30,408 nucleotides of DNA, from the NCBI GenBank assembly GCA_024403585.1, contig JAKSRN010000001.1, positions 1-30,408 of the forward strand, written 5' to 3'. Source of the DNA: Lachnospiraceae bacterium (GTDB taxonomy: Bacteria > Bacillota > Clostridia > Lachnospirales > Lachnospiraceae). A model generated the notes under the pieces. It made no database searches, was not told where the DNA came from, and saw only the letters and a list, made by a program, of their open reading frames with translations. Positions within the stretch are counted from its first letter, which is position 1, and the number at the start of each line of letters is the position of its first letter. Below, one piece after another: positions 2-24,098 of this stretch. The translations under genes and the position numbers were made by a program.

Positions 2-910
2 TTTTTTGTAACAGGCGTGAATGGTCAGCTGGGCCATGATGTTATGAATGAGCTGAATAAAAGAGGTCATGAGGGTGTAGGATCAGATCTTGCAGAATGC
101 TATGCAGGTGTCGCAGACGGAAGTGCAGTAACTACCATGCCATACATGGGTCTGGATATCACTGACAAAGAGGCTGTAGAGAAAGCAATCACTGAGATCA
201 ATCCGGATGCAGTGATTCACTGTGCAGCATGGACTGCAGTAGATATGGCTGAGGATGATGATAAAGTAGCAGCTGTAAGAAAGGTTAACGCAGGCGGAAC
301 TCAGAATATTGCAGATGTATGTAAAAAACTGGATTGCAAGATGCTCTATCTTTCTACTGACTATGTATTCGATGGACAGGGAACAGAGCCATGGCAGCCA
401 GACTGCAAAGACTACAAACCTCTGAATGTTTACGGACAGACAAAACTGGAGGGAGAGCTGGCAGTAAGCGGAACTGTTGACAAGTTCTTTATCGTACGTA
501 TCGCATGGGTATTCGGTCTGAATGGTAAAAACTTTATCAAGACTATGATCAATGTTGGAAAAACTCATGACGAAGTAAGAGTTGTAAACGATCAGATCGG
601 AACACCAACCTACTGCTTCGACCTTGCTCGTCTTCTGGTTGATATGTGTGAGACAGAAAAATACGGATACTACCACGCAACCAATGAGGGCGGTTATATT
701 TCCTGGTATGATTTCTGTGTAGAGTTCTACAAACAGTATGGACTTACAACAAAGGTTACACCGGTAACAACAGCAGAGTATGGTTTAAGCAAAGCTGCAA
801 GACCATTCAACAGCAGACTGGACAAGAGCAAACTGATCGAGAACGGTTTCCAGCCACTTCCAACCTGGCAGGATGCGGTGTCCAGATATCTGAAAGAAGC
901 AAATCTGTAA
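2..910 (+). CDS. rfbD: dTDP-4-dehydrorhamnose reductase (RmlD/RfbD), 5'-truncated by the window edge
   Basis: The frame is open from base 2 (FFVTGVNGQLG = Rossmann TGxxGxxG), so the true start lies upstream of the window, not at GTG 17. SDR motifs STDYVFDG and YGQTKLEGE; RfbD-typical VNDQIGTPT and RPFNSRLD. Confidence 0.96.
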   Translation, partial: FFVTGVNGQLGHDVMNELNKRGHEGVGSDLAECYAGVADGSAVTTMPYMGLDITDKEAVEKAITEINPDAVIHCAAWTAVDMAEDDDKVAAVRKVNAGGTQNIADVCKKLDCKMLYLSTDYVFDGQGTEPWQPDCKDYKPLNVYGQTKLEGELAVSGTVDKFFIVRIAWVFGLNGKNFIKTMINVGKTHDEVRVVNDQIGTPTYCFDLARLLVDMCETEKYGYYHATNEGGYISWYDFCVEFYKQYGLTTKVTPVTTAEYGLSKAARPFNSRLDKSKLIENGFQPLPTWQDAVSRYLKEANL

Positions 911-932: not shown

Positions 933-972
933 TAAGGAATTGGTTAAGAAGATAAGGAATCGGTTAAGAAGA
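933..972. repeat. 20-bp tandem duplication (TAAGGAATYGGTTAAGAAGA x2, one mismatch)
   Basis: 933-952 taaggaattggttaagaaga and 953-972 taaggaatcggttaagaaga, read directly. Confidence 0.9.
950..964 (+). repeat. 15-bp direct repeat, left copy (AGATAAGGAATCGGT)
   Basis: Identical to 8229-8243. Confidence 0.85.
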
Positions 973-1048: not shown

Positions 1049-3781
1049 TCAGTTGTGTTTACGGCGTCCTATACGCAGATGAAGGATGACCAGGATCAGG
1101 AAGATACACCAGGAAACAACAGTGATCAGTAATGCTGTTTTCAGAAGCGGCTGCTGATAATCCAGACGGATATCGTGACTGCCGGCAGGGAGATGGATGG
1201 CAGAGAAGCCATAGTCTGCACGAAGGATCTCCTGTTCCTCACCGTCAACTGTGATGGTCCAGCCATTCTCGTAAGGAATCGGGAAGAATACATATCCATC
1301 CTCTTTCAGTTCCGCAGTGCACAAAATGTGACTGTCGTTGTAGGTATCTGTTAATGTGATCTCTGCTGTACTCTCCGCTTTCTTAACAGAAGGAGCTGTA
1401 TAGAAATGGAAGTCAGACAGGGAAGTGATCAGGTTTGGATCCCAATTGTGGATATAGAGACCATCGGATCCCACCGGAAGCTGCATCTCAACCGTAACAG
1501 GAGCTCCTCCCACAACCGTGACGGTCTTGTAATTATAGAGTTCTTCTGTAGTTCGAATCTGCAGATCATAGGATCCGTTTACGCAAGCAGTAAAGCGTAC
1601 AACGATCTCGCCGTCCTCTTCTGTAACTGCTCTGTTGAATGGCAGATAGGTTTCCGGCTGCTGCCAGCTGTATTTTCCTTCTGCATCCGGCACCAGATCA
1701 GGAGATATACGGAAGGTATCATTGTCAATAAGCTTATAATCGTCCAGTACCTTTGCCAGAGAGTTTACATCTACACCAGGGGCTTCATCATCCAGAAGCA
1801 GGTAATCTTTCAGGACTGCATCTGTATTGAGAAGTGCTTCACAGGTTTCAAAATCATAGTTAGCCAGAGTTTTGGTATAGAAGGAAGCAAAGGATTTCCA
1901 GTTGATGTTTTTGTAAAGATAGAGAGAACCGAAAGTCTTCTCCAGCTGATAGCAGGAGGCAGGAGCCTTGGAGCTCTGAGAAACCACATACTTGATTCCA
2001 AATAAATCTGCGTAATCCTCTTCTTTAGAAATCTGGCGGAAGGTCCAGTGGGCAGTATTGATATAGTAGAGTTCAGGTACCGTCTTGTCCAGAAACTCCA
2101 GGATATATCGGTTGGAGGTGCTGTTATAGGTACTGATTCCACGATAATACTGGCCGGCTGAATCCATGCAATGGGAACCGGCTTCATAATCTTTCTCAAG
2201 ACGGTAGAAATCTCCGTCTGTTTCCAGAAGATAGTTCTGGAGAGCTTTCCAGTCATCACCGTACATTGCTTCTGTATAAGCAGGGTCGTTGGCATTCACT
2301 CCGCGTTTTGCTGCTGTGGTATAGGTATCTGCCGTAACATTCAGTCCTATAGTCAGGCAAAGCAGAAGAAGGAGCGGGGACCTTTTGGAGGCAAATCTCT
2401 TTCTGCTGAGCAGGAAGAGGAAGACTGCCATCAGGATCAGTGTGCCGGCGAGGATCAATGCATCCAGTCGGAATGTCAGAACTGTGAATTCTCTTATTTT
2501 TTTCAGATACAGATATTCAGCAGGCAGCAAGGTGATCAGCGCACCGAAGATGCTGAAACGATGCTCCTCAAGGATGATATCCATCATGTAGGCCGTCAGT
2601 AAGGCAAACAGCGGCATCAAAAGGAAGGTATGTCTGCAGAACGGAGTTGAAAAAGCATTGAAGATCATACTTCCCAGCATGATGCACAGGGAGAAAACGC
2701 ATGCCAGAACCGTAAAAATCTGGACCAGCCTTGTGCGGATGCCGGTTTCTTTTCTGAATACAATAGCCAGGACAAACTGCACCAGAAGGAGAAGCAAAAG
2801 ACCTGAGAAGAACAGGCAAGGTGCTTCATAGAAATTGGCGAAACCGGTGTAGCCCATCTTTGCAGTTCCGATTCCTTCCAGTGTACTCGCAAGAAAGCGG
2901 TAGATCAGAGTCTTGTAATAAGCCATATCCTGCCATGGACGAAGTCCTTCCAGACAGCGGGTAAGAAGAGAACTCTGCCCCTCCATTCGCGCTGATACAC
3001 TGAAAACAAGTGCATAGGAAGGAAGAAGATTCAGAATACCCATGAATACACCCAAAAGAAGGGCGAATCCCTGACGGAAAAGCGCAAGCACAAATCCAAT
3101 AAATCCATCACGTCTGTCCTGGAAGAGGCGAAGTGCCACATAAAAGGCGCAGACAATCAGAACCATATAGGAGAGATAGTAGGTGTTCAGCAGCATGAAA
3201 GCTGTACAGATCACCACAGCCGGAGAAAACTTCTTTTTCTGCAGGGACGACTCTAAGAGACTCAGCAGTAAAGGAAGGAAGATCATCATCATACTGAACT
3301 GATAGTGCTGTCCCCAGACAGTCAGAAAACCATTAAATGCATACAGGTACGATGCGATCAGTCTGGCCTCAAAGCTGAATGAAAAACGGGACAGGTATTT
3401 CCAGGCTGCAAAACCGGAAAGGATCAGGAGCAGAAGGTGTACATAGATCAGAGCATGAGCCATCATCTGAGGACCTGCAATGATTCCGATACAGTACAGG
3501 ATCCACAGAGAAGGATTCAGAAGATTCAGCTGATACATGCTGGTTCCAAAACCGTTTGTAAAATCCCAGAAAGAAAGATTTCCGTTTCTGATATGGTTTA
3601 CCACCGTGCTGTATTGCATGATATACTGCTCCGCAGTATCCGAACCGATATCACGGAACATGAAGAGAGAGTTGCCGAAGATGTATTGATAATAGGCAAC
3701 GCATCCTGTCAGGGCAATCAGAAAAAACAATAAAACATAGGGATGTTTCTTGAAAAAACCGGTAAGATTTCGTATAAACAT
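1049..3781 (-). CDS. YfhO-family polytopic membrane protein (GT-C-fold glycosyltransferase), 910 aa
   Basis: About 11-13 hydrophobic segments, a large extracellular domain and a final TM helix. YfhO-typical C-terminus FFPIPYENGWTITVDG...GFSAIHLPAGSHDIRLDY. SD AAAGGAG upstream on the minus strand. Confidence 0.88.
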   Translation of the reverse strand: MFIRNLTGFFKKHPYVLLFFLIALTGCVAYYQYIFGNSLFMFRDIGSDTAEQYIMQYSTVVNHIRNGNLSFWDFTNGFGTSMYQLNLLNPSLWILYCIGIIAGPQMMAHALIYVHLLLLILSGFAAWKYLSRFSFSFEARLIASYLYAFNGFLTVWGQHYQFSMMMIFLPLLLSLLESSLQKKKFSPAVVICTAFMLLNTYYLSYMVLIVCAFYVALRLFQDRRDGFIGFVLALFRQGFALLLGVFMGILNLLPSYALVFSVSARMEGQSSLLTRCLEGLRPWQDMAYYKTLIYRFLASTLEGIGTAKMGYTGFANFYEAPCLFFSGLLLLLLVQFVLAIVFRKETGIRTRLVQIFTVLACVFSLCIMLGSMIFNAFSTPFCRHTFLLMPLFALLTAYMMDIILEEHRFSIFGALITLLPAEYLYLKKIREFTVLTFRLDALILAGTLILMAVFLFLLSRKRFASKRSPLLLLLCLTIGLNVTADTYTTAAKRGVNANDPAYTEAMYGDDWKALQNYLLETDGDFYRLEKDYEAGSHCMDSAGQYYRGISTYNSTSNRYILEFLDKTVPELYYINTAHWTFRQISKEEDYADLFGIKYVVSQSSKAPASCYQLEKTFGSLYLYKNINWKSFASFYTKTLANYDFETCEALLNTDAVLKDYLLLDDEAPGVDVNSLAKVLDDYKLIDNDTFRISPDLVPDAEGKYSWQQPETYLPFNRAVTEEDGEIVVRFTACVNGSYDLQIRTTEELYNYKTVTVVGGAPVTVEMQLPVGSDGLYIHNWDPNLITSLSDFHFYTAPSVKKAESTAEITLTDTYNDSHILCTAELKEDGYVFFPIPYENGWTITVDGEEQEILRADYGFSAIHLPAGSHDIRLDYQQPLLKTALLITVVSWCIFLILVILHLRIGRRKHN

Positions 3782-3946: not shown

Positions 3947-6100
3947 ATGAAAAGAGTATTGATCCTTGGTGCCAGCTATACACAGACACCTTTGTATGAA
4001 GCGGCAAAAAAACTGGGAATCGAAACTATTGCCGGCAGTATCCCGGGACCATATCCGGGATTTGACCTGGCAGATGAAACAGCATATATGAATATTGCCG
4101 ATCCGGATGAGTGCGTAGCGGTTGCTTCTGATCTTAATCTGGATGGCGTATGTACCTGTGGACTGGATCTGGGCATGAGAGCGATCGGTGCGATCAGTGA
4201 TACCTGTCATCTTCCGGGACCTTCCCGTGCAGCTGCTGAGCGTGCCGGTAATAAATTTGAGATGAAAAAGGCTCTTGTTGCAGCAGGAGTTCAGACCGCA
4301 CGTTTTTTCTGTATCCATAATGAGGAGGAGCTGGAAGCTGCTCTGGATCAGCTGACCTTTCCGGTTATTCTGAAAGCGGTGGATCAGATGGGAAGCCGTG
4401 GTATCTTCCGCAGTAATACAAGAGAAGAGGCCAAAGAGAATTTCCATAAGAGTATGGAAGCAACTGCCAAAGACTATTGTCTGGTGGAAGAGTTTATTGA
4501 AGGCGAGATCTTTGGTGTAGAAGCAATGATCCAGAACGGACAGGTTCTGTTTATGCTTCCTAATAATATAGAAGCATTTGTTGTTACAACACCTACCCCG
4601 GTGGGACACTCTGTACCTTTTAAAGAGGAAGCCACTCTTGGAGCACAGGTTCGCGAGCAGACAGAGAAAGCCATTCGTGCACTGGGGCTTGACAATTGTC
4701 CTGTAAACTGTGATTTTATAAAACGTGACGGAAAAGTCTATGTAATTGAGCTGACAGGAAGATCAGGTGCAACAGGTCTTTCTGAGATGACCGGTATCTA
4801 TTACGGACTGAATTATTATGAGATGATCCTCCGGCTTGCAGTAGGAGAGGATGTGTCCGGATATTTCACAGGAGATATTCCACGCACACCGAACCTGACA
4901 CATACATTGATGGCAGACAGAAAGGGAATCGTCCGCGAGATCATTAACAGGAATGCACCGGCAGATGACATCCTTGATCTTTCCTTCAATATTGAGCCCG
5001 GCAATCCGGTACAGCCATATACCAATGGCCGTGACAGGATTGGACAGGTGATCTTGAAGGGAAGTACTCTTGCAGCATGTGAACGCAGACTGAAGGAGAT
5101 CCTGGACCAGATCAGTCTTCGTCTGGAAGGTGATCTTCCGATCTTTGATACACCGATCATGGAGCTTTCCTCCTGTGAGGAAAACCGGATCTTCTGTAAA
5201 AGAGAAGATACGATCCCATTTTCCTTTGGTGGAAATAAAGTACGTTTTGCCCAGTATTATCTGGAAGATATGGAACGTAAAGGCGCGAATGCGATGATCC
5301 TGTATGGAGGTTATCATTCCAATCTTTGCAGAATCCTGTCTGCAGCCTGTCTGAAGAAGGGAATTCCATGTTCCATGATCCACATGGTGGATGACATTGA
5401 TCCGGATGAGAAAAGCTGCAATATGACACTGATCCAGGCTTCCGGTGTAAAAGAGTACCGTTGTCATAAAGACGGAATTGCTGCAGCAGTTCAGAAGGCA
5501 ATGGATGACTTCAGGGAACAGGGTTTTGAACCATATTATATCCATGGCAATATCTACGGAAAAGGCAATGAGACTACTCCGATGAGGGCCTATGTGGATG
5601 TTTATCGCGAAATCTGCCAGCAGGAGAGAACGATGGGTATTTCCTTCGATTACATCTTCCTTGCGACCAGTACAAACAGTACTCAGTCAGGTCTGGTGGC
5701 TGCACATGCCATGGACGGTGACAACCGCAAGATCATCGGTATCTCTGTTACAAGATCTGCTGAGCGTGCCATCGCCGTGATTGGTGCAAACCTGAAAGAA
5801 TACCAGGAAAAATTCGACGCTGCTTACAGATTGTGCTGTAATCCGGAAATCCTGGTGGAGGATGCTTATCTGGCAGGCGGCTATGGTTGTGAGAATGAGG
5901 GGATCCGTCAGGCAATCCGTGATGCTTATCTGAAGGATGGCATGAATCTGGATGCCACTTATACAGGCAAAGCATTCTGGGGAATGCAGGAGTACCTGAA
6001 ATCCCACCATATCACAGCTAAAAATATCCTTTTCCTGCACACAGGAGGAACGCCTTTGTTCTTCGATGCACTGGAAACCGGTGTATTTGATCACGCATAA
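3947..6100 (+). CDS. Fusion protein: N-terminal ATP-grasp ligase (CarB/L-amino-acid-ligase-like) + C-terminal PLP fold-type II enzyme (D-cysteine desulfhydrase/ACC deaminase family), 717 aa
   Basis: ATP-grasp motifs: NKFEMK, FPVILKAVDQMGSRGI, LVEEFIEG, VYVIELTGRSG, and a LAL-type C-terminal subdomain. From about aa 395: TPI...KREDTIPFSFGGNKVR (PLP lysine K431), GGYHSN, LDATYTGKA, LFLHTGG. Confidence 0.88.
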   Translation: MKRVLILGASYTQTPLYEAAKKLGIETIAGSIPGPYPGFDLADETAYMNIADPDECVAVASDLNLDGVCTCGLDLGMRAIGAISDTCHLPGPSRAAAERAGNKFEMKKALVAAGVQTARFFCIHNEEELEAALDQLTFPVILKAVDQMGSRGIFRSNTREEAKENFHKSMEATAKDYCLVEEFIEGEIFGVEAMIQNGQVLFMLPNNIEAFVVTTPTPVGHSVPFKEEATLGAQVREQTEKAIRALGLDNCPVNCDFIKRDGKVYVIELTGRSGATGLSEMTGIYYGLNYYEMILRLAVGEDVSGYFTGDIPRTPNLTHTLMADRKGIVREIINRNAPADDILDLSFNIEPGNPVQPYTNGRDRIGQVILKGSTLAACERRLKEILDQISLRLEGDLPIFDTPIMELSSCEENRIFCKREDTIPFSFGGNKVRFAQYYLEDMERKGANAMILYGGYHSNLCRILSAACLKKGIPCSMIHMVDDIDPDEKSCNMTLIQASGVKEYRCHKDGIAAAVQKAMDDFREQGFEPYYIHGNIYGKGNETTPMRAYVDVYREICQQERTMGISFDYIFLATSTNSTQSGLVAAHAMDGDNRKIIGISVTRSAERAIAVIGANLKEYQEKFDAAYRLCCNPEILVEDAYLAGGYGCENEGIRQAIRDAYLKDGMNLDATYTGKAFWGMQEYLKSHHITAKNILFLHTGGTPLFFDALETGVFDHA

Positions 6101-6263: not shown

Positions 6264-6629
6264 ATGAATAAACAGAATGAAAAGAAGAAAACGCCGTTGT
6301 GGGTTCTGATCATGCTTCAGGCCAGTCTTCTGTTTTCTTCACTTAGCGGCGTATGCTCGAAGCTGGCCGCTCAGTCCGAGGGGATAATCAAGTTTCTGTT
6401 CTGGTATGGAATGGTTTTGTTTATCATGTTCGGATATGCTGTGATCTGGCAGCAGATTTTAAAAAGAATGCCGCTGACCGTTGCCTATGCCAACAAACCG
6501 GTTGGTCTCATCTGGGGAATGATCTGGGGAACGTTGATTTTCGGAGAAAGGATCACCTGGAATATGATTCTGGGTGCAGGAATTATCTTTGTGGGTATCT
6601 TCCTGGTGGTGACAGCGGATGGACAATAA
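6264..6629 (+). CDS. Small DMT/SMR-superfamily transporter subunit (EamA / ArnE-ArnF-like), 121 aa
   Basis: Four hydrophobic helices, MPLTVAY motif, GERITWNMILGAGIIFVGI C-terminus. No EmrE-type Glu in helix 1. Confidence 0.82.
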   Translation: MNKQNEKKKTPLWVLIMLQASLLFSSLSGVCSKLAAQSEGIIKFLFWYGMVLFIMFGYAVIWQQILKRMPLTVAYANKPVGLIWGMIWGTLIFGERITWNMILGAGIIFVGIFLVVTADGQ

Positions 6630-6969
6630 GTATTATATTCTGATTCTGCTGGTATCTGTTTTTGTTTCAGCGGTATCACAGATCATCTTAAAAACAGCTG
6701 CGAACAGAACCTATGAGAGTGCGATCAAAGAGTATCTGAATTTCAGGGTTATCTTTTCTTACGGATTATTTTTCCTGTCCACGATCCTGACCATGATCGC
6801 TTTGAAAAAGGTTCCGTTATCTATGCAGCCTATTCTGGAATCTACTTCTTATATATATGTTTCCGTAATGGGATACTTTTTATTGAAAGAACGTTTCAGC
6901 AAGAGAAAACTACTGGGCCTGGCCCTGATCCTGCTGGGGATTTTTGTATATTCCATCAACATGGCATGA
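6619..6969 (+). CDS. Small DMT/SMR-superfamily transporter subunit (EamA / ArnE-ArnF-like), 116 aa
   Basis: Four TM helices, SQIILK, ALKKVPLS, LKERFSKRKLLGLALILLGI. Overlaps its partner by 11 nt, which suggests a coupled heterodimer. Confidence 0.82.
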   Translation: MDNKYYILILLVSVFVSAVSQIILKTAANRTYESAIKEYLNFRVIFSYGLFFLSTILTMIALKKVPLSMQPILESTSYIYVSVMGYFLLKERFSKRKLLGLALILLGIFVYSINMA

Positions 6970-6990: not shown

Positions 6991-8124
6991 ATGATTGATT
7001 TTAACAGACCACCTTATGTAGGAAAAGAGATGACTTACATCCAGGAGGCAATTGCGAATAAAAAGCTTTGCGGTGACGGTGCATTTACTAAAAAATGTTC
7101 CGCATGGATGAAAGAAAAACTGGGGACAGAGTTTGCCCTCCTCACCACATCCTGTACACATGCGCTGGAGATGGCGGCTCATCTCTGTGATCTTGAGCCG
7201 GGTGATGAGGTAATTATGCCGTCCTATACATTTGTTTCTACTGCGGATGCATTTGTATTAAAAGGAGCGAAGATCGTTTTTGTTGATGTTCATCCTGAGT
7301 CCATGAACATTGACGAAACTAAGATCGAGGAAGCAATCACAGATAAGACAAAAGTAATCGTTCCTGTTCATTATGCCGGTGTTGCATGTGAGATGGATAC
7401 GATCATGGATATTGCAAAACGTCACAATCTTCTGGTTGTTGAGGATGCAGCGCAGGGTGTCAATGCCTTCTACAAGGGAAGAGCCCTGGGAACCATCGGT
7501 GATTTCGGCTGCTTCAGCTTCCATGAGACTAAAAACTACACCATGGGTGAGGGTGGAGCACTTCTCTTCCAGGATCCGAAGTACCTGGAGAAAGCGGAGA
7601 TCCTTCGTGAAAAAGGAACTGACAGAAGTAAGTTTTTCCGTGGACAGATCGATAAATATACATGGGTGGATTTCGGTTCTTCCTATCTGCCAAGTGATAT
7701 GAATGCAGCTTATCTCTACGCACAGCTGGAGGAAAGCAAGAAGATCGACGATCAGAGAATGGCCATCTGGAATCTCTACAATGACGGGCTGAAAGAACTG
7801 GCAGACAGAGGTCTGATCGAGCAGCCTTTCATTCCAAAAAGCTGTGTACACAATGCCCACATGTACTATATTAAGCTGAAAGATCTGGAGACAAGATCTG
7901 CACTGATCTCTTATCTGAGAGAAAGAGACATCTGTGCAGTATTCCATTACATTCCTCTGCACAGTGCAGCTGCAGGATTGAAGTTCGGACGTTTCCATGG
8001 GGAAGATAAATATACCACAGTTGAGAGTGAGCGTCTGATGCGTCTTCCAATGTATTATTCTCTCAGTCTTGAGGAGGCTGCACAGGTTGTGGACGCGATC
8101 AAGGCATTTCCTGCATTTCAGTAA
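6991..8124 (+). CDS. rffA: dTDP-4-amino-4,6-dideoxygalactose transaminase (WecE/RffA, DegT/DnrJ family)
   Basis: MIDFNRPP, LLTTSCTHALEMAA, VEDAAQG, FSFHETKNYTMGEGGAL (PLP Lys), REKGTDRSKFFRGQIDKYTWVDFGSSYLPSD, AVFHYIPLHS. All are characteristic of WecE. Confidence 0.95.
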   Translation: MIDFNRPPYVGKEMTYIQEAIANKKLCGDGAFTKKCSAWMKEKLGTEFALLTTSCTHALEMAAHLCDLEPGDEVIMPSYTFVSTADAFVLKGAKIVFVDVHPESMNIDETKIEEAITDKTKVIVPVHYAGVACEMDTIMDIAKRHNLLVVEDAAQGVNAFYKGRALGTIGDFGCFSFHETKNYTMGEGGALLFQDPKYLEKAEILREKGTDRSKFFRGQIDKYTWVDFGSSYLPSDMNAAYLYAQLEESKKIDDQRMAIWNLYNDGLKELADRGLIEQPFIPKSCVHNAHMYYIKLKDLETRSALISYLRERDICAVFHYIPLHSAAAGLKFGRFHGEDKYTTVESERLMRLPMYYSLSLEEAAQVVDAIKAFPAFQ

Positions 8125-8228: not shown

Positions 8229-8243
8229 AGATAAGGAATCGGT
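8229..8243 (+). repeat. 15-bp direct repeat, right copy; contains the SD of the 8244 gene and abuts its ATG
   Basis: agataaggaatcggt, identical to 950-964. Confidence 0.85.
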
Positions 8244-10061
8244 ATGGCACAGTCACAAGTTATTCGTATTATGAAAAAAATCAGACCTTATACCATAAAA
8301 AAGGGACTGCTTTATCTGAAACACTATGGTTTCAAGGATTTTATGAGCCGTCTTGCAGAGCGCATGGAACCGGAAGAGGTTCCGTATGGTCCATGGTATG
8401 AGGAGCATAAGGCTTCTGAAGCGATGTTGGAAAAACAACGGAAGGTTCATTGGGTAGATCCTGTGACTATCAGTATCGCTGTTCCGGCTTATCATACGCC
8501 GGAGGAGTTTCTGCGCCAGCTTCTGGATTCGCTTGTGGCACAGACGTATCCATACTGGGAGCTCTGCATAGCCAATGCCAGCCCTGAGGACGAAGTGATG
8601 CAGAAGGTACTGAAGGAATACCGGGATAAGGATAAAAGGATCAAGGTTCTTGATCTCGAAGAGAATGCCGGTATCTCCCAGAATACGAATGCTGCGCTTT
8701 TCATGGCAAGCGGTCAGTATGTGGGACTTCTGGATCACGATGATCTGCTGGCTCCTGACTGTCTGTATGAAGTAGCTGTCAGAATCTGTGATGAGAAGGC
8801 AGACATGATCTATACGGATGAGGATAAAGTAACTTCTGACTTAAGTGAACACTATCAGCCGCACCTGAAACCGGATTTCAGTCCTGATCTTCTCAGATCC
8901 AACAACTATATCTGCCATTTCCTTACTGTGAAAAAGGAGCTGGTGGAAGCAGTCGGAGGATTCCGTAAGGAGTTCGACGGTGCGCAGGATCATGATTTTA
9001 TCTTCCGGTGTTCTGAAAGAGCGGAGCATATTGCGCATGTTCCGAGAATTCTTTATCACTGGAGAACACATAAGGCATCCACAGCAGATAATCCGGCCAG
9101 CAAGCTTTATGCTTACGATGCCGGAAAGAGAGCGGTGGAAGGTAACCTGGAGCGTCTGGGTCTGAAAGGCGAGGTTTCGCATACAAAGGATTATGGTTTC
9201 TACAATGTGAAATACCAGGTACAGGGAGAGCCGCTGGTTTCTATCCTGATCCCGAATAAGGATCAGAGAGATACACTGGAGACCTGTATCAGATCGATTC
9301 GTGAGAAAACCACTTATAAAAATTATGAGATCCTGATCATTGAGAATAACAGTGTAGAAGAAAATACATTTGCTTATTATAAATGTCTGTCAGGGGATCC
9401 GAAGATCCGTCTTTTACGTTGGAAATCCGGATTTAATTATTCTGCGATCAATAATTATGCGGCTCGAAAAGCCAAAGGTGAGTACCTGCTGTTTTTGAAT
9501 AACGATATTGAAGTGCAGACACCTGACTGGATTGAAGAGATGCTGGCAAACTGTCAGCGGCCGGATGTGGCGATCTGCGGCAGCAAACTGTATTATCCGG
9601 ATCATTCGATCCAGCATGCCGGTGTGATCGTTGGTCTTGGCGGAATCGCAGGACATGCGTTCCTTAATATGCCGGGAAGCAGAACCGGTTATCTTCATAA
9701 AGCATCCATCCAGCTGAATACCAGTGCGGTTACGGCTGCATGTATGATGATGAAAAAAGAAGTATTTGATATGCTCGGTGGTTTTGAAGAAAAACTCACG
9801 GTGGCATTCAACGATGTGGATCTGTGCCTTAGAACTGTCAGGGCCGGATATTGGATCGTATATAACCCGCATGTGGAGATGATTCATTATGAGTCAAAAT
9901 CCCGTGGGGCAGAAGACAGTCCTGAGAAGGTTCGCCGCTTCCAGAGTGAGATTGAATTCATGCGAACCCGCTGGATCGATTTCCTGAAAAAGGGCGATCC
10001 CATGTATAATCCTAATCTTACGTTAAGTAAATGGAATTATTCTCTCAGGGCAAAACAGTAA
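8244..10061 (+). CDS. Two-domain GT2 glycosyltransferase (probable rhamnan polymerising rhamnosyltransferase), 605 aa
   Basis: Two GT-A domains: ISIAVPAY...GLLDHDD...YTDEDK...GAQDHD and VSILIPNKD...FLNNDIE...AVTAACMM...FNDVDLCLR. Confidence 0.9.
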   Translation: MAQSQVIRIMKKIRPYTIKKGLLYLKHYGFKDFMSRLAERMEPEEVPYGPWYEEHKASEAMLEKQRKVHWVDPVTISIAVPAYHTPEEFLRQLLDSLVAQTYPYWELCIANASPEDEVMQKVLKEYRDKDKRIKVLDLEENAGISQNTNAALFMASGQYVGLLDHDDLLAPDCLYEVAVRICDEKADMIYTDEDKVTSDLSEHYQPHLKPDFSPDLLRSNNYICHFLTVKKELVEAVGGFRKEFDGAQDHDFIFRCSERAEHIAHVPRILYHWRTHKASTADNPASKLYAYDAGKRAVEGNLERLGLKGEVSHTKDYGFYNVKYQVQGEPLVSILIPNKDQRDTLETCIRSIREKTTYKNYEILIIENNSVEENTFAYYKCLSGDPKIRLLRWKSGFNYSAINNYAARKAKGEYLLFLNNDIEVQTPDWIEEMLANCQRPDVAICGSKLYYPDHSIQHAGVIVGLGGIAGHAFLNMPGSRTGYLHKASIQLNTSAVTAACMMMKKEVFDMLGGFEEKLTVAFNDVDLCLRTVRAGYWIVYNPHVEMIHYESKSRGAEDSPEKVRRFQSEIEFMRTRWIDFLKKGDPMYNPNLTLSKWNYSLRAKQ

Positions 10062-10075
10062 AAAAGGAGTCTGAC

Positions 10076-11041
10076 GTGAAAGAAGTAACAGTTGTGATCC
10101 CCAATTACAATGGAATGAAGTATCTGAAGATCTGTATGGATGCATTAAGAAAGCAGACGCTTAAAAGTTTCACCGTCCTTCTGGTGGACAACGGATCAGA
10201 GGATGACAGTGTTGCTTATGTCAGAGAACAGTATCCGGAGGTGGAAGTGATCTGCCTTCCGGAAAATACAGGTTTCTGTGGTGCGGTGAATACCGGTATC
10301 CGGAGAACTGTGACTCCCTATGTGATCCTTCTTAACAACGATACGGAAGTGTTTCCGGAGTTTTGTGAGGAATTACTGAAGGGGATCAAACGCAGAAAGA
10401 AAGCATGCTCTGCAGCTGGAAAATTGATCCAGTATCATGACAAAACAAAGATTGATGATGCCGGGAATTATTATTGTGCTCTTGGCTGGGCGTATGCCAG
10501 AGGAAAGGATCAGTCTGTGGATCGCTATGAGAAAGCAGAGCAGGTTTTCTCGGCCTGTGCCGGAGCGGCAATCTACAGGATGGACGTTTTAAAGAAGATC
10601 GGTCTTCTGGACGAGGCGCATTTTGCCTATCTGGAGGATCTGGACCTGGGATACAGGGCAAGGATCTTCGGATATGAAAACTGGTATATCCCGACTGCGA
10701 AGGTCTATCATGTGGGTAGCGGAACCAGCGGTTCCAGATACAATACATTCAAGACCGGCTATTCCGCAAGGAACAATATCTATCTGATCCATAAAAACAT
10801 GCCTATGGTTCAGGTACTTCTGAATCTGCCTCTGCTCCTGGCAGGATTTGGAGTGAAAGCTGTCTTTTTTCAGAAGAAAGGACTTGGAGCTGAATACAGG
10901 AAAGGGATCCGACAGGGTCTGCTTCTTGGATATAAAAAAGAAAACCGTAAGAAGAAGATTCGTTTTCAGTGGAGAAACCTTGGGAATTATGCAAGGATCC
11001 AGCTGGAACTTTGGATAAATATAGTGAGAAGACTTCGCTAG
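10076..11041 (+). CDS. GT2 glycosyltransferase (WbbL-like / rhamnosyltransferase-type), 321 aa
   Basis: VTVVIPNYNG, LLVDNGSED, NTGFCGAVN, LLNNDT, YLEDLDLGYRA, VYHVGSGTSG. Start moved from 10031 to GTG 10076 (SD AGGAG at 10065-10069). Confidence 0.9.
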   Translation: MKEVTVVIPNYNGMKYLKICMDALRKQTLKSFTVLLVDNGSEDDSVAYVREQYPEVEVICLPENTGFCGAVNTGIRRTVTPYVILLNNDTEVFPEFCEELLKGIKRRKKACSAAGKLIQYHDKTKIDDAGNYYCALGWAYARGKDQSVDRYEKAEQVFSACAGAAIYRMDVLKKIGLLDEAHFAYLEDLDLGYRARIFGYENWYIPTAKVYHVGSGTSGSRYNTFKTGYSARNNIYLIHKNMPMVQVLLNLPLLLAGFGVKAVFFQKKGLGAEYRKGIRQGLLLGYKKENRKKKIRFQWRNLGNYARIQLELWINIVRRLR

Positions 11042-11042
11042 G

Positions 11043-11071
11043 TTGTTTTTTCACAATCTGTATAGTATAGT
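11043..11071 (+). promoter_or_regulatory. Possible sigma-A promoter for the LCP gene
   Basis: TTGTTT (11043-11048), N17, TATAGT (11066-11071), in an AT-rich intergenic region. Confidence 0.4.
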
Positions 11072-11135
11072 AAATTACTGTAAAAGTGAGAGGTTGCGCA
11101 TAGTTGCACAACAAAATCATGAGGAGTAAAAAATA

Positions 11136-12455
11136 ATGGCTAAAAAAAGTAAAAAATCCGGCTACAACAAAAGAAAGGGTCTGTTTGCATTCGAGTGCAT
11201 CATCCTGTCTCTTCTTGTTGTGGTTCTGGTCGGTAGTATATGGGTAATGGCAAAGTTTTCAATGATCAACTTTGAAAAACTGGATACTGACAAACTGGTC
11301 ACAGCCGAAGAAGCGAATACTGACCAGGAACAGAATACAGAAACGCAGCCAGGGCAGGAAACTCAGACAGAGAATGATTTTGGACTGAGTGGCGTCGAGA
11401 TGTTTGCGCTGGTTGGTATTGATGAGCGTGATGGAATGGACAGTATGAACAGTGATACCATGATCATTGCATGTCTCAATCATAATGAAAAGACCATCCG
11501 TCTTGCTTCTGTCTATCGTGATACCTATCTGAATGTAGGTGAGTATGAAGGGGAGACTTTGTATTCCAAGGCAAACTGTGCTTACGGAATTGGCGGTGCT
11601 GCCCAGTTCCTTACCATGCTTAACCTGAATCTGGATCTGAATATTACAGAGTTTGCTTCTGTTCGTTTCCTGGCCCTGGCAAAAACAATTGAGCTGATGG
11701 GCGGTCTGGATATCGATATGACCAGAGAGGAAGTAATCCATCTGAATAACTATAATATTGAAACATCGGAAGCATGTAACATGCCTTACGTGGAACTGGA
11801 GATGCCGGGACCGCTGGAGTTTGACGGTGCCAAGACACTGACTTTCCATGTAAACGGAACTCAGGCTGTTTCCTATGCACGTATTCGTTATACGCAGGGT
11901 AACGATTTCCGTCGTGCCGCAAGACAGAGACTTGTACTTCAGAAAACACTGGAGAAAGCAAAAACCTGTGGAATCGGTACTCTGAACAATATCCTCAATG
12001 AGGTTCTTCCGGATGTTACCACCAATATGAATAACTCCAAGATCATGACCTATGCGGCAGCTGTTCTTTCCTATGATATTGTGGATCAGGCAGGATTCCC
12101 GTTTGATCATATTGAGGACGAGGGAGATCTGACAGGAAGTGATAACGTTATCACAGTCACACTGGAGAATAATGTAATCAAGCTGCATGATTTCCTGCTT
12201 CCGGGTGTACCATATGAGCCGTCAGCAACTGTAAAAGAATACAGTAACTATATTATCAATAAAACCGGTCTTGGTATGGAGTCTCTGCCATTGCAGTCTG
12301 AAGACGGAACGATTCCAATCTGGACTGCAGAAAGTCAGGCACAGGCTGACGCAGCGGCTGCAGAAGCGGCTGCGGCACAAGGCAGTGAAGAGTATTCCGG
12401 GTATGACAGTAATGATACAGAAGGATATGATTCCTATGATGAGAGCGGTTATTGA
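11136..12455 (+). CDS. LCP (LytR-CpsA-Psr) glycopolymer-peptidoglycan ligase, 439 aa
   Basis: Basic N-tail and one TM helix; LVGID, SDTMII, SVYRDTY, KANCAY, NGTQAVSYARIR, DFRRAARQR. Confidence 0.93.
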   Translation: MAKKSKKSGYNKRKGLFAFECIILSLLVVVLVGSIWVMAKFSMINFEKLDTDKLVTAEEANTDQEQNTETQPGQETQTENDFGLSGVEMFALVGIDERDGMDSMNSDTMIIACLNHNEKTIRLASVYRDTYLNVGEYEGETLYSKANCAYGIGGAAQFLTMLNLNLDLNITEFASVRFLALAKTIELMGGLDIDMTREEVIHLNNYNIETSEACNMPYVELEMPGPLEFDGAKTLTFHVNGTQAVSYARIRYTQGNDFRRAARQRLVLQKTLEKAKTCGIGTLNNILNEVLPDVTTNMNNSKIMTYAAAVLSYDIVDQAGFPFDHIEDEGDLTGSDNVITVTLENNVIKLHDFLLPGVPYEPSATVKEYSNYIINKTGLGMESLPLQSEDGTIPIWTAESQAQADAAAAEAAAAQGSEEYSGYDSNDTEGYDSYDESGY

Positions 12456-12475
12456 TCAAAGGATTTGAGGTTACT

Positions 12476-13399
12476 ATGGAACATATAAAAACAGTGGATA
12501 TCTGTATCCCTGTCTATAAACCGGATCCTGAATTCGCTGCGATGCTGAAACGTCTGGCGAAACAGGACTATCCGATTCACAAGCTGTGGATCGTGAATAC
12601 AGAAGAAAAATACTGGGATACTTCTTTTGAAAAGGAGTATCCCCATTGTCATATCATGCACATTTCCCGGGAAGACTTCAATCACGGGGGTACAAGGCGC
12701 TTAATGGCTGAAAGCTCCGATGCAGAACTGATCTTGTTTATGACACAGGATGCGATGCCTGCTGACCAGCACCTTGTGGGGAACCTGGTGGAAGCATTTG
12801 ATGAGCAGGGAGTCAAAGCTGCTTATGCCAGACAGCTGCCACGTAAGGAGTGCAGAATGATGGAAGCCTATACCAGAAGCTTTAATTACCCGGCGGTCAG
12901 CTGTACGAAAAGCCAGGCAGATCTGCCAACCAGGGGGATTAAAACATTTTTCTGTTCCAATGTCTGTGCAATGTATGAGAAAAAAACGTATATGGAACTG
13001 GGGGGATTTCCTGAGCGGACGCTCTTTAATGAGGATATGATCTATGCAGGACATCTGATTCAGGCCGGATATAAGATCCGTTATCAGGCAGAGGCAAAGG
13101 TGATCCATTCCCATAACTATTCAAACAGACAGCAGTTTCATCGGAATTTTGATCTGGCTGTTTCTCAGGCAGAATTTCCGGAAATCTTCCAGACATATCC
13201 TTCAGAGGGGGAAGGATTAAAACTGGTAAAATCTACTGCAGCCTACGTTTGCAAAAAGGGAAAACCGTGGCTGGTGGTTTCACTGTTTACGGGAAGTTTC
13301 AGTAAATATGCAGGATATTTTCTGGGGAAACGATTCAAAAAACTGCCGGGATGGCTGGTAAAGAGATGTACCACGAACCCAGGCTACTTTACCAGGTGA
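12476..13399 (+). CDS. GT2 rhamnosyltransferase (RfbN/WbaN-like), 307 aa
   Basis: VDICIPVY, FNHGGTRR, LFMTQDA, AAYARQLP, FCSNVCAMY, NEDMIYA, VIHSHNY...FD. Start moved to ATG 12476 (SD GAGG). Confidence 0.85.
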   Translation: MEHIKTVDICIPVYKPDPEFAAMLKRLAKQDYPIHKLWIVNTEEKYWDTSFEKEYPHCHIMHISREDFNHGGTRRLMAESSDAELILFMTQDAMPADQHLVGNLVEAFDEQGVKAAYARQLPRKECRMMEAYTRSFNYPAVSCTKSQADLPTRGIKTFFCSNVCAMYEKKTYMELGGFPERTLFNEDMIYAGHLIQAGYKIRYQAEAKVIHSHNYSNRQQFHRNFDLAVSQAEFPEIFQTYPSEGEGLKLVKSTAAYVCKKGKPWLVVSLFTGSFSKYAGYFLGKRFKKLPGWLVKRCTTNPGYFTR

Positions 13400-17174: not shown

Positions 17175-17858
17175 ATGAAGAATAAATTATTAGCAGCAAC
17201 TTTAGGAATTCTCCTGGCGATCGGATGTATCGGAATCAGTGTATCAAAAGTATCTGCAGAGCCTGATATGGAATCTACAGTGGAAGCTGAAGAGACAGAA
17301 GAATCTGCGGAAGCTGAAGAGGAGGAGACAGTGCCGGAGGAAGATGCTGACACTGTTCCGGAAGAAGACGCAGAAGCAGAAGAAAAAAAAGAGGAAGAAA
17401 CAGAGGTCAAAGCAGAATCAGAAGAGAAAGAAGAGGATGCGGAGATCACCGGAATGAAGATCACACTTGAAAATGAGCTTCAGGCGGATATAATTTCTGT
17501 AGAAGTGGCAGCATTCTCCAATGAAGTATATTCAGAGAATCTTTTGAAAAAAGATCAGATTTTCGCAGCCGGAGAGTCCTGTACCATTGGTGTTCCTGAA
17601 GAGTTTCAGGATGCGGATCTGGGTATGTATAATGTTCGGATCACTCTGGCAGACGGAAGCATTCAGGAAATCCCATTGGTTCCGCTTTTGGAAAATGTAA
17701 TCGGAACAGTGTATCCGGATAACGGAATTGTTCTGATCAGAGTTCGTGATGAGCGTCTGGAAGCTGAAGCAGAACCGGTCAGTGAAGCAGAGATTCAGCA
17801 GACGGAAGCTGAAGCAAGCCAGATCATGGCAGAAATCCTCTCTGCAGAATTAGAATAA
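17175..17858 (+). CDS. Secreted acidic protein of unknown function, 227 aa
   Basis: Signal peptide (VSA|E), Glu-rich low-complexity linker, a compact probably beta-rich domain of about 100 aa, and an acidic helical tail. SD AGAGGTG upstream. Confidence 0.8.
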   Translation: MKNKLLAATLGILLAIGCIGISVSKVSAEPDMESTVEAEETEESAEAEEEETVPEEDADTVPEEDAEAEEKKEEETEVKAESEEKEEDAEITGMKITLENELQADIISVEVAAFSNEVYSENLLKKDQIFAAGESCTIGVPEEFQDADLGMYNVRITLADGSIQEIPLVPLLENVIGTVYPDNGIVLIRVRDERLEAEAEPVSEAEIQQTEAEASQIMAEILSAELE

Positions 17859-20212: not shown

Positions 20213-20260
20213 GCTGCTCTTAACTGGAAATACACTTCGTGGTTAAGAGCAGCGTTTTTA
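20213..20260 (+). terminator. Terminator-like hairpin between the LtaS/OpgB-like gene and the GT-C/Gtr module
   Basis: 12-bp perfect stem gctgctcttaac (20213-20224) and gttaagagcagc (20242-20253), 17-nt loop, followed by GTTTTTA. Confidence 0.6.
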
Positions 20261-20277
20261 TAATGGGGTACGTGCAG

Positions 20278-22005: not shown

Positions 22006-22976
22006 TGGATAAGATTGCGGTTTTGATTCCGTGTTATAACGAAAGCAAGACAATCGAGAAGGTTGTTAAGGATTTTAAGGCTGCTTTACCTGAAGCAGTG
22101 ATCTATGTGTATGATAATAATTCCAGTGATGGGACTGATGAGATTGCCCGAAAAGCAGGGGCAGTCGTAAAATACGAGCATAAGCAGGGAAAAGGTAACG
22201 TAATCAGAAGAATGTTCCGTGATATTGATGCAGAATGCTATATCATGGCAGATGGAGATGATACTTACCCTGCAGAACATGCACCGGAGATGGCCAAACT
22301 GGTTCTTGAAAAGAAGGTGGATATGGTTGTAGGAGACAGACTTTCTTCTACTTATTTTGAAGAGAATAAGAGACCTTTCCATAACATGGGCAATTCTGTA
22401 GTGCGTGGCGGTATCAATCTGCTCTTTAAGAGCGATATCAAAGACATCATGACCGGTTACAGAGCATTCAGCTACCTGTTTGTAAAATCATTCCCGGTTC
22501 TTTCCAAAGGATTTGAGATCGAGACAGAGATGTCCATTCATGCCATTGACAAAAATATGTACGTGGAGAATGTGGTCATTACCTACAGGGATCGTCCGGA
22601 AGGAAGTGAGTCTAAGCTGAATACTGTATCCGATGGATTAAAAGTACTGAGAACCATCGCTCGTCTTTTCCGCAATTACAAGCCGATGCAGTTCTTTGGT
22701 ATTATTGCAGCAGTGCTTGCCTGCATATCAACTGCTTTCTTTATTCCTGTTCTTGTGAACTATATTCATACAGGACTTGTACCACAGTTCCCGACACTGA
22801 TCGTATGTGGTTTTGTGATGGTGATCGCGATCCAGTCTCTCTTTGCCGGTCTGATCCTGCAGAATATGGTACAGAAAAACAGACAGGATTTTGAGCTGGA
22901 GCTGATCAAGATCCGTGATATGGAGCAGAGATTATTAGGAAAACGAAAAAGATGCGTACAGAAACAGGCTCAGTAA
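22005..22976 (+). CDS. GT2 polyprenol-phosphate glycosyltransferase (GtrB/CsbB/DPM1-like), 323 aa
   Basis: IAVLIPCYNE, YVYDNNSSD, KQGKGN, MADGDDTY, MVVGDR, DIMTGYRAFS, GFEIETE, YRDRPEGSESKL, two C-terminal TM helices. TGATG coupling with the upstream gene; SD AGGAG. Confidence 0.9.
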   Translation: MDKIAVLIPCYNESKTIEKVVKDFKAALPEAVIYVYDNNSSDGTDEIARKAGAVVKYEHKQGKGNVIRRMFRDIDAECYIMADGDDTYPAEHAPEMAKLVLEKKVDMVVGDRLSSTYFEENKRPFHNMGNSVVRGGINLLFKSDIKDIMTGYRAFSYLFVKSFPVLSKGFEIETEMSIHAIDKNMYVENVVITYRDRPEGSESKLNTVSDGLKVLRTIARLFRNYKPMQFFGIIAAVLACISTAFFIPVLVNYIHTGLVPQFPTLIVCGFVMVIAIQSLFAGLILQNMVQKNRQDFELELIKIRDMEQRLLGKRKRCVQKQAQ

Positions 22977-24079: not shown

Positions 24080-24098
24080 AAGGAGACTGTCAATTAAT

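Follow-up and report, generated by a model that had tools for sequence, protein, structure and literature searches.

A single gene from a gut Lachnospiraceae bacterium was found to encode an ATP-grasp ligase joined directly to a fold-type II, pyridoxal phosphate (PLP)-type domain, and this fusion gene is confirmed to be genuine and recurrent. It lies in a window of 30,408 nucleotides, the whole stretch of DNA analyzed here, next to genes for the synthesis and transfer of a wall polysaccharide. Judged from sequence, the best-supported function is the ligation of an amino acid onto the 4-amine of a WecE-made sugar, with the help of the PLP domain. More specifically, we lean cautiously towards the fusion being a bifunctional tailoring enzyme in an Arn-like, lipid-carrier-dependent decoration of a rhamnose-type wall polysaccharide, in which the PLP half would supply the amino acid. 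The features of the locus are summarized in Table 1.

Table 1. Fusion gene, its two halves and the neighboring features, with positions in the window
Feature	Position	Strand	Basis and remarks
RmlD (dTDP-4-dehydrorhamnose reductase)	2..910	+	TIGR01214 270 bits, cut-off 224; truncated at contig start
15-nt exact direct repeat, left copy	950..964	.	
YfhO-family GT-C membrane glycosyltransferase, divergent	1049..3781	-	PF09586 205 bits; weak PgfM1/PgfM2 matches
Fusion gene P0001	3947..6100	+	717 aa; ATP-grasp "B" + DCD-like PLP domain
ATP-grasp half, L-amino-acid-ligase (LAL) type with LAL_C2	3947..5128	+	aa 1-394; Pfam, alignment, Foldseek
PLP half, fold type II, DCD/CuyA-like	5129..6097	+	aa 395-717; Pfam, alignments
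Small EamA/SMR-like membrane protein, flippase pair half 1	6264..6629	+	ArnE 33 bits, below cut-off
Small EamA/SMR-like membrane protein, flippase pair half 2	6619..6969	+	ArnE 30, ArnF 27 bits, below cut-offs
WecE, dTDP-4-keto-6-deoxyglucose 4-aminotransferase	6991..8124	+	NF008687 637 bits (cut-off 375); TIGR02379 633 bits (cut-off 435)
15-nt exact direct repeat, right copy	8229-8243	.	ends at the start codon of the double-GT2 gene
Wall-polysaccharide backbone genes: double GT2, GT2, LCP ligase, GT2	8244..13399	+	gene order shared with L010-L019

The initial annotation had described an uninterrupted open reading frame of 717 amino acids with a domain boundary near residues 393/395. The open reading frame call, Pfam, end-to-end alignments and an AF2 model bore this out, and the boundary had been placed correctly: the gene opens with ATG, runs through 717 codons without interruption, and joins two complete domains without a linker. 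The model (pLDDT 92.8, pTM 0.88) showed no low-confidence linker at the junction. Since the source genome is a MAG fragmented into 585 contigs, two separate genes might have been wrongly joined by assembly or annotation. However, contigs X2, X4, and X5, which come from three independent studies, cross positions 4700-5600 with 0 gaps, no joints, and no indels, and contig X9 also covers the junction stretch 5078-5402. The same two-domain architecture is common to ~70 protein clusters (clustered at 90% identity) of 700-757 amino acids with 48-98% identity, so that homologues are not always split, and the confidence of the AF2 model holds through the junction. An assembly artefact was ruled out by the independent contigs together with the ~70 clusters of the same architecture, and the probability of a wrongly joined gene is negligible. 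The architecture had not been recognized among characterized enzymes; likewise, no paper characterizing an ATP-grasp-PLP fusion or its system was found in the literature searched.

In the N-terminal half, Pfam matches to ATP-grasp_3/4, GARS_A, and RimK spanned ~100-300, followed by LAL_C2 at residues 320-394 (47 bits, cut-off 29). The three-domain ATP-grasp fold with LAL_C2 and the conserved ATP/Mg-binding residues place this half in the LAL branch. Residues K103, K143, E181, E268, and R272 were invariant in 64 fusions, and the IELTGRxGA motif aligned with the E..R.G pattern of 3VOT and 4WD3. The standalone ATP-grasp protein 4DIM from Anaerococcus prevotii (403 amino acids), a structural genomics entry deposited as "phosphoribosylglycinamide synthetase" with no assigned function, resembled the N-terminal half over the full length (query 2-392, chain 8-401, E 2e-99; Foldseek TM 0.86), but is not fused to a PLP domain. 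Foldseek also returned 3VOT (TM 0.84). The L-amino-acid ligases BL00235 (3VOT), RizA (4WD3), and BacD have the LAL_C2 domain and the E...R.G active-site pattern in common with the fusion, at an identity to its ATP-grasp half of <20%. These enzymes join two free amino acids, whereas the genomic context suggests that a sugar amine, predicted to be that of a 4-amino sugar, replaces the free amino acid as acceptor.

That context is a wall-polysaccharide locus. RmlD marks it as a rhamnose-polysaccharide locus, which also encodes a GacH/LtaS-like enzyme. The cassette from YfhO to WecE is bracketed by the pair of 15-nt direct repeats. The flippase pair and YfhO flank the fusion, and the presumed task of YfhO is to move the sugar from its lipid carrier onto the wall polymer. 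All matches to Arn and Pgf models were below the cut-offs. WecE (637 bits) and RmlB are both present, as expected of the 4-aminotransferase part of an Arn-like system. In relatives, a tight operon B-E1-E2-Gs-WecE is kept across many genera, where B is the ATP-grasp domain and Gs an ArnC/PgfS-like GT2 (170 bits for the ArnC model and 168 bits for the PgfS model, both below the curated cut-offs). Gs adjoins B in most relatives, while in this genome a 70%-identical copy is located on another contig, C209. An EamA/SMR-like small membrane gene adjoins B in most loci.

A linkage of the fusion to wecE had been proposed and holds in the neighborhood survey; like this one, the other computational checks suggested in the initial annotation turned out in its favor. 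WecE was found near 43 of the 45 PLP-positive loci, counting only loci with full flanks. Five genomes apparently without WecE all carry it elsewhere. The PLP-negative loci L057 and L081 have only unrelated housekeeping genes as neighbors and no WecE nearby; WecE lies elsewhere in these genomes. In a sample of 200 genera, WecE was present in all 13 B-positive genomes compared to 72 of 200 genomes overall (36%), shared ancestry being uncorrected. As 59 of these 72 WecE-positive genomes have no B, WecE alone does not imply the pathway.

These data bear on the question whether the ligase acts on a sugar at all. It might instead produce a free dipeptide or a modified amino acid, or modify peptidoglycan or teichoic acid, the glycan genes being merely co-located. 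The closest characterized ATP-grasp relatives (3VOT BL00235, RizA, and BacD) do make free dipeptides, and a DD-carboxypeptidase and L,D-transpeptidases occur in or near the modules. Against this stand the persistence of the operon across genera, the constant company of WecE wherever B occurs in the sampled genomes, and the pairing of a DegT aminotransferase with all three unrelated ATP-grasp clades. Furthermore, the acetyltransferase WecD was looked for and not found, nor was any other N-acylating enzyme for the WecE product, so that an off-sugar ligase would leave this product without an available acylating enzyme. We consider such a function improbable.

The C-terminal half matched Pfam PALP at residues 398-700 (profile positions 4-295 of 295) and aligned with ACC deaminase and D-cysteine desulfhydrase (DCD) over almost the full length. 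The positions Glu295 and Leu322 discriminate ACC deaminases from D-cysteine desulfhydrases. At these positions the PLP half carries the DCD-type motifs YTGK and HTGG, where the ACC deaminase-type signature, as in 1RQX, is YEGK and HLGG. With this replacement and a score of 125 bits where TIGR01274 requires 392, identity as an ACC deaminase was rejected. The family reference for D-cysteine desulfhydrase/CuyA consisted of the TIGR01275 subfamily and the equivalogs NF052482 and NF003030. Here, too, the scores stayed far below the curated cut-offs, with 116 of 289 bits for TIGR01275, 153 of 450 for CuyA, and 110 of 429 for DcyD (NF003030); XcbE reached 134 of 450. The best curated matches were thus CuyA, XcbE, and ACC deaminase, in this order.

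The pocket residues were retained. In the numbering of StDcyD, N50, K51, S78, N79, Y287, and T315 make up the pocket shared by DcyD and CuyA, in which Y287 is the alpha-deprotonating base for D-substrates (PMC11193023). In alignments to 4D97, 7YSK, and 1RQX all six were kept in the PLP half, and the residues N430, K431 (the Schiff-base lysine), S458, N459, Y672, and T699 were invariant in the 64 fusions. DcyD (Salmonella 4D8T series; Pectobacterium 7YSK) and CuyA (PMC11193023) thus have the same fold type II (TM 0.82-0.84), the Schiff-base lysine, Asn50, the Ser78-Asn79 loop, the D-face base Tyr287, and Thr315 in common with the PLP half, but are only ~26% identical to it. The residue following the Ser-Asn loop is His or Gln in DcyD and CuyA and Leu in the PLP half. 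The relatives are located in catabolic operons, whereas the subfamily of the PLP half is found in glycan-biosynthesis cassettes; moreover, the PLP half is fused to a ligase, unlike DcyD and CuyA. From its sequence, the PLP half is a relative of DCD/CuyA outside every curated equivalog and forms a separate subfamily. Of the earlier assignment to a "DCD/ACC deaminase family", the DCD side therefore stood, with DCD/CuyA-like residues including the D-face tyrosine, while the ACC deaminase side did not. As the carboxylate-binding Ser-Asn loop is kept, a free amino acid is the expected substrate.

The PLP subfamily comprises 174 clusters (E<1e-30). A single orthologous clade (support 100/100) was fused to B in 28 loci and to A, an ATP-grasp paralogue of B, in 36 loci; the A-fused form was seen in Blautia, and B. 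wexlerae carries it as a pair with B. In one locus (L094), the PLP gene of the same clade stands alone directly upstream of B. The wider subfamily is also fused to GNATs and to Bac_transf and nearly always adjoins a sugar 4-aminotransferase and an ATP-grasp gene. In other families of Clostridia it occurs in cassettes of Wzx, PALP, GNAT, PylC-like ATP-grasp, DegT, RmlA, and 4,6-dehydratase genes, and the DegT aminotransferase is paired with each of three unrelated ATP-grasp clades. On the contig of P0129, the gene is accompanied by no more than a GT2 and a Wzx flippase. The PLP module was absent from eight loci with full flanks, and is hence not required by the ligase; B. ammoniilytica is one PLP-negative relative. 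The partnership of PLP domain and ATP-grasp postulated in the initial annotation therefore recurs, but is not specific to B: the PLP module is a dispensable accessory that occurs with either of the two ATP-grasp paralogues and can also be encoded on its own. This shuffling of domains speaks for a functional link.

In the proposed pathway, RmlA and RmlB would provide dTDP-4-keto-6-deoxyglucose, from which WecE would form a dTDP-4-amino-4,6-dideoxyhexose, by annotation dTDP-Fuc4N or dTDP-Qui4N. The PLP half is predicted to act on a free amino acid by D-face chemistry, either racemisation/epimerisation or beta-replacement through an aminoacrylate, and its product, a D- or otherwise non-proteinogenic amino acid, would be used by the ligase. 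The ATP-grasp half would convert the carboxylate of this amino acid to an acyl phosphate and transfer the acyl group to the sugar 4-amino group, taking the place of the missing WecD. The GT2 encoded on contig C209 may then link the aminoacyl sugar to undecaprenyl phosphate, after which the pair of small EamA proteins may flip the lipid-linked sugar across the membrane and YfhO would join the sugar to the polymer. Where the second ATP-grasp (A) is present, it probably adds a second residue, and a GNAT in its place probably caps the alpha-amine.

The role of the PLP half as a supplier is counted against by the fact that the characterized DCD/ACCD/CuyA members are all lyases that make a 2-oxo acid. 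Lyase chemistry, the only one demonstrated in this family, could operate here in a D-Cys/D-Ser/cysteate-type enzyme, with pyruvate or 2-oxobutyrate being ligated to give, e.g., an N-pyruvoyl sugar, or with the ammonia serving an amidation. The complete lyase residue set and the three best curated matches agree with this. With pyruvate being abundant, however, there seems to be no need for a fused enzyme devoted to making it; amino acids are what LAL-type and PylC-like ATP-grasps activate; and a RidA-type enamine deaminase was not seen in the modules. The keto-acid option is also disfavored because related cassettes add a GNAT, which requires a free amine to cap. Amidation of a uronic acid was set aside, as a UDP-sugar dehydrogenase or uronic-acid gene was absent from the window and the core modules and no such gene is there to need it. 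Overall, a plain lyase appears quite unlikely.

Alternatively, the order of events may be reversed, with the ATP-grasp half attaching an ordinary residue such as Ser or Cys and the PLP half, bound to its free alpha-amine, then performing beta-elimination or beta-replacement on the sugar-linked residue to leave a dehydroalanyl, pyruvoyl, or beta-substituted acyl group. Action on a terminal residue would explain why the PLP module pairs with either ATP-grasp or with none, all characterized relatives are beta-eliminases, and the tight, high-pTM packing of the domains in the AF2 model fits a hand-over of the product. Yet an amide would fit the invariant Ser-Asn loop less well than a free alpha-carboxylate, and the GNAT of the distant cassettes would find no amine after elimination to a keto-acyl group. 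This order is unlikely in our view, though it merits consideration.

If the PLP half supplies a D-amino acid before ligation, one option within the favored pathway, a further step is conceivable. Of the 45 PLP-positive loci with full flanks, 38 encoded a secreted S11 DD-peptidase, compared with 0 of the 8 PLP-negative ones. Based on this co-inheritance, the D-aminoacyl alpha-amine might act, outside the cell, as acceptor for the S11 enzyme, which would cross-link the decorated polysaccharide to peptidoglycan stem peptides. We regard this as a long shot; if true, the glycopolymer would be anchored by a peptide bond, distinct from phosphodiester ligation by LCP enzymes.

The favored pathway resembles the Gram-negative Arn (Pmr) system (ArnB, ArnA, ArnC, ArnD, ArnE/F, ArnT), in which likewise a 4-aminotransferase acts on the sugar, the amine so formed is N-acylated, a GT2 loads undecaprenyl phosphate, a pair of small subunits serves as flippase, and a GT-C transfers the sugar outside the membrane. 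The systems differ in the sugar (UDP-Ara4N in Arn, a dTDP-6-deoxyhexose here), in the acylation (a formyltransferase in Arn, an ATP-grasp with an amino acid predicted here), in the deformylase, which is not present in this module, and in the GT-C and its target (ArnT and lipid A versus YfhO and wall polysaccharide). Gram-positive three-component systems consist of a CsbB/GtrB-type GT2, a flippase, and a YfhO protein, such as PgfS/PgfM1/PgfM2 of S. mutans and the streptococcal GacI-L side-chain addition, and transfer plain Glc or GlcNAc. The PgfS-like GT2 (168 bits) and the YfhO protein with weak PgfM matches are shared with them, and the likeness extends to the LCP ligase and the LtaS/GacH-like enzyme encoded in a rhamnose-polysaccharide locus. 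To our knowledge, none of these systems has any aminotransferase, ATP-grasp, or PLP enzyme for tailoring the sugar. A similar scheme is described for the amidation of the Campylobacter jejuni HS:2 capsule, in which the PLP enzymes Cj1436 and Cj1437 build a small amine block that the C-terminal ATP-grasp amidoligase of Cj1438 couples to a surface-polysaccharide sugar by an amide bond (PMC11800379 and references 37-39 therein). The polarity is reversed in that system, since the sugar (GlcA) provides the carboxylate and the small molecule the amine. Its ATP-grasp belongs to a TupA-like clade, and its PLP enzymes are of another fold type and not fused to the ligase.

The carriers are gut commensals, comprising many Blautia species, Scatomonas, Oliverpabstia, and others, and the cell-wall glycopolymers of these abundant organisms are almost unstudied. 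As cultured carriers exist, among them Blautia wexlerae, B. schinkii DSM 10518, and B. caecimuris DSM 29492, the prediction is directly testable. If it is true, the orphan structure 4DIM would gain a function, as would a PLP subfamily that numbers 170 sequence clusters or more, and the DCD/ACCD/CuyA family, from which only catabolic lyases are known to date, would have its first role in biosynthesis. An aminoacylated 4-amino sugar would put a free amine on the polysaccharide, and together with the GacH/LtaS-like enzyme this could give a zwitterionic surface polymer, of a kind known to modulate host immunity.

The fusion described in the initial annotation, a complete ATP-grasp ligase joined to a complete PLP domain in a single 717-aa ORF, was borne out by the reading frame, by Pfam (table below) and by alignments. 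The N-terminal half could be aligned from end to end with PDB 4DIM, a standalone ATP-grasp protein of 403 residues (E 2e-99), and the C-terminal half with ACC deaminases and D-cysteine desulfhydrases across nearly their entire length. Contigs from three independent animal-gut studies crossed positions 4700-5600 with no indel and no joint; the junction is thus continuous, and an assembly artefact is ruled out. The fused architecture recurred in ~70 protein clusters (700-757 aa, 48-98% identity). An AlphaFold2 model based on 64 fused homologues (mean pLDDT 92.8, pTM 0.88) contained no weak linker, which predicts that the two domains pack against each other in one fixed arrangement. No solved chain covering both halves was found in the structure search (best query TM 0.49). 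Searched separately, the ATP-grasp half matched 4DIM (TM 0.86) and the L-amino-acid ligase 3VOT (TM 0.84), and the PLP half matched Salmonella D-cysteine desulfhydrase (TM 0.82-0.84). Literature searches found no paper characterising the fusion or its cassette. The fused gene is genuine and conserved, and it encodes a bifunctional enzyme yet to be characterised.

Features of the window and of related loci (L-numbers); positions refer to the window unless stated otherwise
Feature	Position	Strand	Details
Fusion ORF	3947-6100	+	717 codons, uninterrupted
ATP-grasp, several models	fusion residues 100-300		Pfam
LAL_C2 (L-amino-acid-ligase C-terminal domain)	fusion residues 320-394		Pfam
PALP	fusion residues 398-700		Pfam; profile positions 4-295 of 295
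15-nt direct repeat, left copy	950-964		inside a tandem 20-mer duplication (933-972) right after rmlD
15-nt direct repeat, right copy	8229-8243		final base abuts the double-GT2 start codon
Exact 14-mer pair, unrelated	4233 and 5757
ORF, polysaccharide locus	17175-17858		227 aa; no Pfam or NCBIfam match
ORF, polysaccharide locus	20239-22005		588 aa; no Pfam or NCBIfam match
AglJ/DPM1-like GT2, Acyl_transf_3 O-acyltransferase, GtrA-family protein	22002-24509
S11 DD-carboxypeptidase-like gene	L079:14199-15470
S11 DD-carboxypeptidase-like gene	L090:13042-14307
S11 DD-carboxypeptidase-like gene	L010:4390-5769
DUF2142 membrane protein	L094:1691-3112		at YfhO's usual place, split module
Three ATP-grasp paralogues, two ArnC-like GT2 genes	L044:8784-21170		Lachnospiraceae; PLP module absent

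Residues K103, K143, E181, E268, and R272 of the ATP-grasp half did not vary across the 64 fusions, and its large-loop motif lined up with that of characterised L-amino-acid ligases. Two positions tell ACC deaminase from D-cysteine desulfhydrase. There, the PLP half carried the desulfhydrase pattern (YTGK and HTGG), whereas the ACC deaminase 1RQX has YEGK and HLGG. The scores of the PLP half lay far below all curated cut-offs (CuyA, 153 vs. 450; XcbE, 134 vs. 450; TIGR01275, 116 vs. 289). StDcyD and the D-cysteate sulfo-lyase CuyA share a pocket of N50, K51, S78, N79, Y287, and T315, in which Y287 is the base deprotonating D-substrates (PMC11193023). In our alignment these residues corresponded to N430, K431, S458, N459, Y672, and T699 of the fusion, all six of which were unvaried across the 64 fusions. 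Judged by its sequence, the PLP half is a relative of the D-cysteine desulfhydrase/CuyA-type enzymes that stands outside every characterised equivalog.

The partners of the PLP module were compared in 80 related loci from named genomes, nearly all of Lachnospiraceae, with ORFs labelled by the proteins of the window. The module was fused to the window-type ligase (B) in 28 loci. In 35 others it was fused to a paralogous ATP-grasp (A, ~27% identical to B) with a standalone B adjoining, and one further locus had the A fusion only; the 35 include loci of B. wexlerae, B. schinkii DSM 10518, and B. caecimuris DSM 29492. Several loci had A and/or B and lacked the PLP module. The gene content of L044 (see table) may mean that it holds two decoration modules side by side. 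The PLP halves of A and B fusions were ~58% identical. NCBIfam NF002563 (PRK02186, 890 positions, 'argininosuccinate lyase') matched residues 47-395 of the window's fusion (P0001), that is, only the ATP-grasp part, and also matched the A-type ligase; the model seems to represent a different ATP-grasp joined to an amino-acid lyase domain, which would make it a parallel architecture.

When the PLP half was used by itself as the query, an exhaustive search (clusters at 50% identity) returned 174 clusters at E<1e-30, a level well above the ~100-bit match to solved D-cysteine desulfhydrase/ACC deaminase enzymes, so that these clusters form a separate subfamily. The majority of its members were standalone proteins of 310-330 aa; others carried a fusion partner, which was a GNAT acyltransferase (at either end), a Bac_transf sugar-phosphate transferase, or VanZ. 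These fusions (P0178, P0209, P0129, P0133, P0140, and P0182, with one or two GNAT domains where present) appear uncharacterised. P0125, at 47% identity the closest of the standalone members, lay in a split version of the window's module, made up of RmlD, DUF2142, PALP, B, a flippase pair, an A-like ATP-grasp, GT2, WecE, and further GT2s. The position of DUF2142 suggests that it substitutes for YfhO in transferring the same lipid-linked sugar.

In a maximum-likelihood tree of 96 PLP domains, every Lachnospiraceae-type domain fell within a single clade (100/100). The B-fused forms, including that of the window, made up one subclade (100/99), whose sister group mixed A-fused forms with P0125; a large Blautia A-fused clade lay outside both, and GNAT fusions originated repeatedly in a neighbouring clade. 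This topology indicates a single orthologous PLP lineage fused to two different ligases and then split again, a history that strongly supports a role of the PLP enzyme and the ligases in one pathway. Four contigs labelled Coriobacteriaceae, Faecalibacterium, Eggerthellaceae, and Prevotella (L012, L026, L068, and L073) carried modules near-identical to Lachnospiraceae/Blautia ones, and their PLP domains nested within those clades; mis-binning is more likely than cross-phylum transfer.

The proposed link to the 4-aminotransferase WecE held in the neighbourhood survey, with WecE within reach in 43 of 45 full-flank PLP-positive loci. For each of the five loci without a nearby WecE, an orthologue (64-69% identical) was present at another place in the genome. 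When one genome from each of 200 Lachnospiraceae genera was sampled, WecE was present in 13/13 genomes with a B-type ligase and 7/9 with the PLP subfamily, compared to 72/200 overall. The link of PLP enzyme and ligase to the aminotransferase is therefore robust. Standalone PLP genes of four other Clostridia families lay within cassettes (e.g., Wzx, PALP, GNAT, PylC-like ATP-grasp, DegT aminotransferase, RmlA-like, and 4,6-dehydratase), one of which had the ATP-grasp fused to GNAT. Across families, the cassettes define a recurring triad of sugar 4-aminotransferase, ATP-grasp (three clades), and PLP enzyme, often with GNAT.

We consider it somewhat probable that the ligase aminoacylates an amino sugar with the help of the PLP domain, and hold any specific PLP reaction to be distinctly less so. 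The ATP-grasp half would act on the 4-amino group made by WecE, in WecD's stead, and the PLP half would provide the amino acid. Alternatively, the PLP half might modify the residue once it is sugar-bound. Work on a free amino acid is favoured by the invariant carboxylate-binding Ser-Asn loop, by the GNAT cassettes, which require a free alpha-amine to cap, and by the activation of amino acids by PylC-like/LAL-type ligases. A D-amino acid is made plausible by the D-face Tyr, by the strict preference of DcyD and CuyA for D-substrates, and by the PylC-like partners. The characterised members of this family are all lyases, so that racemisation or beta-replacement would be a reaction new to it, and this step is the weakest link of the argument; the rival here is a plain lyase whose oxo-acid product gets ligated.

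A gene for a secreted, signal-peptide-bearing S11 DD-carboxypeptidase was present in 38 of 45 PLP-positive loci vs. none of eight PLP-negative ones (Fisher's test, p = 7e-6, kinship of genomes ignored). In the window's own genome, contig C290 breaks off inside a 75%-identical copy, which fits the place directly upstream of rmlD in the closest relatives' loci (L010 and L011); the gene probably sits directly upstream of the window. This association is in keeping with D-amino-acid chemistry and prompts the speculation that the S11 enzyme might join a D-aminoacyl amine on the wall polysaccharide to peptidoglycan stem peptides.

In the window, the fusion neighbours RmlD, a divergent YfhO GT-C, WecE (637 bits vs. 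a cut-off of 375), and two small EamA proteins weakly resembling ArnE/ArnF. The window also holds genes for the backbone of a wall polysaccharide of the rhamnose type, namely GT2s and an LCP ligase, and farther downstream it encodes an LtaS/GacH-like enzyme and GBS_Bsp-repeat proteins. In most relatives, the flippase pair is separated from WecE by a ~315-aa GT2 (ArnC model, 170 bits; PgfS model, 168 bits), which is absent from the window; elsewhere in the genome, contig C209 carries a 70%-identical copy. RmlB is present in the genome (92% complete), in which no WecD-type Fuc4N acetyltransferase was found. The genes at 22002-24509, whose GT2 scored 217 bits to TIGR04182 (under cut-off), form a second lipid-carrier module downstream, suggesting a separate, second type of side-chain decoration on the same polymer. 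The exact 15-nt repeat flanking the YfhO-to-WecE cassette could be an insertion footprint or a mere duplicated ribosome-binding region; a 15-mer pair within 7.5 kb has a rough chance expectation of ~0.03, yet the 14-mer pair also occurs.

The delivery route is of a familiar type and would work along the lines of Gram-positive GtrB/flippase/YfhO systems and the Arn pathway; what is new is the tailoring step. The nearest characterised analogue of that step is Cj1436/Cj1437/Cj1438 of C. jejuni, where PLP enzymes feed an ATP-grasp that decorates a sugar, although with a polarity opposite to that proposed here. The fusion matters for its frequency among dominant gut commensals and because cultured strains allow a direct test.
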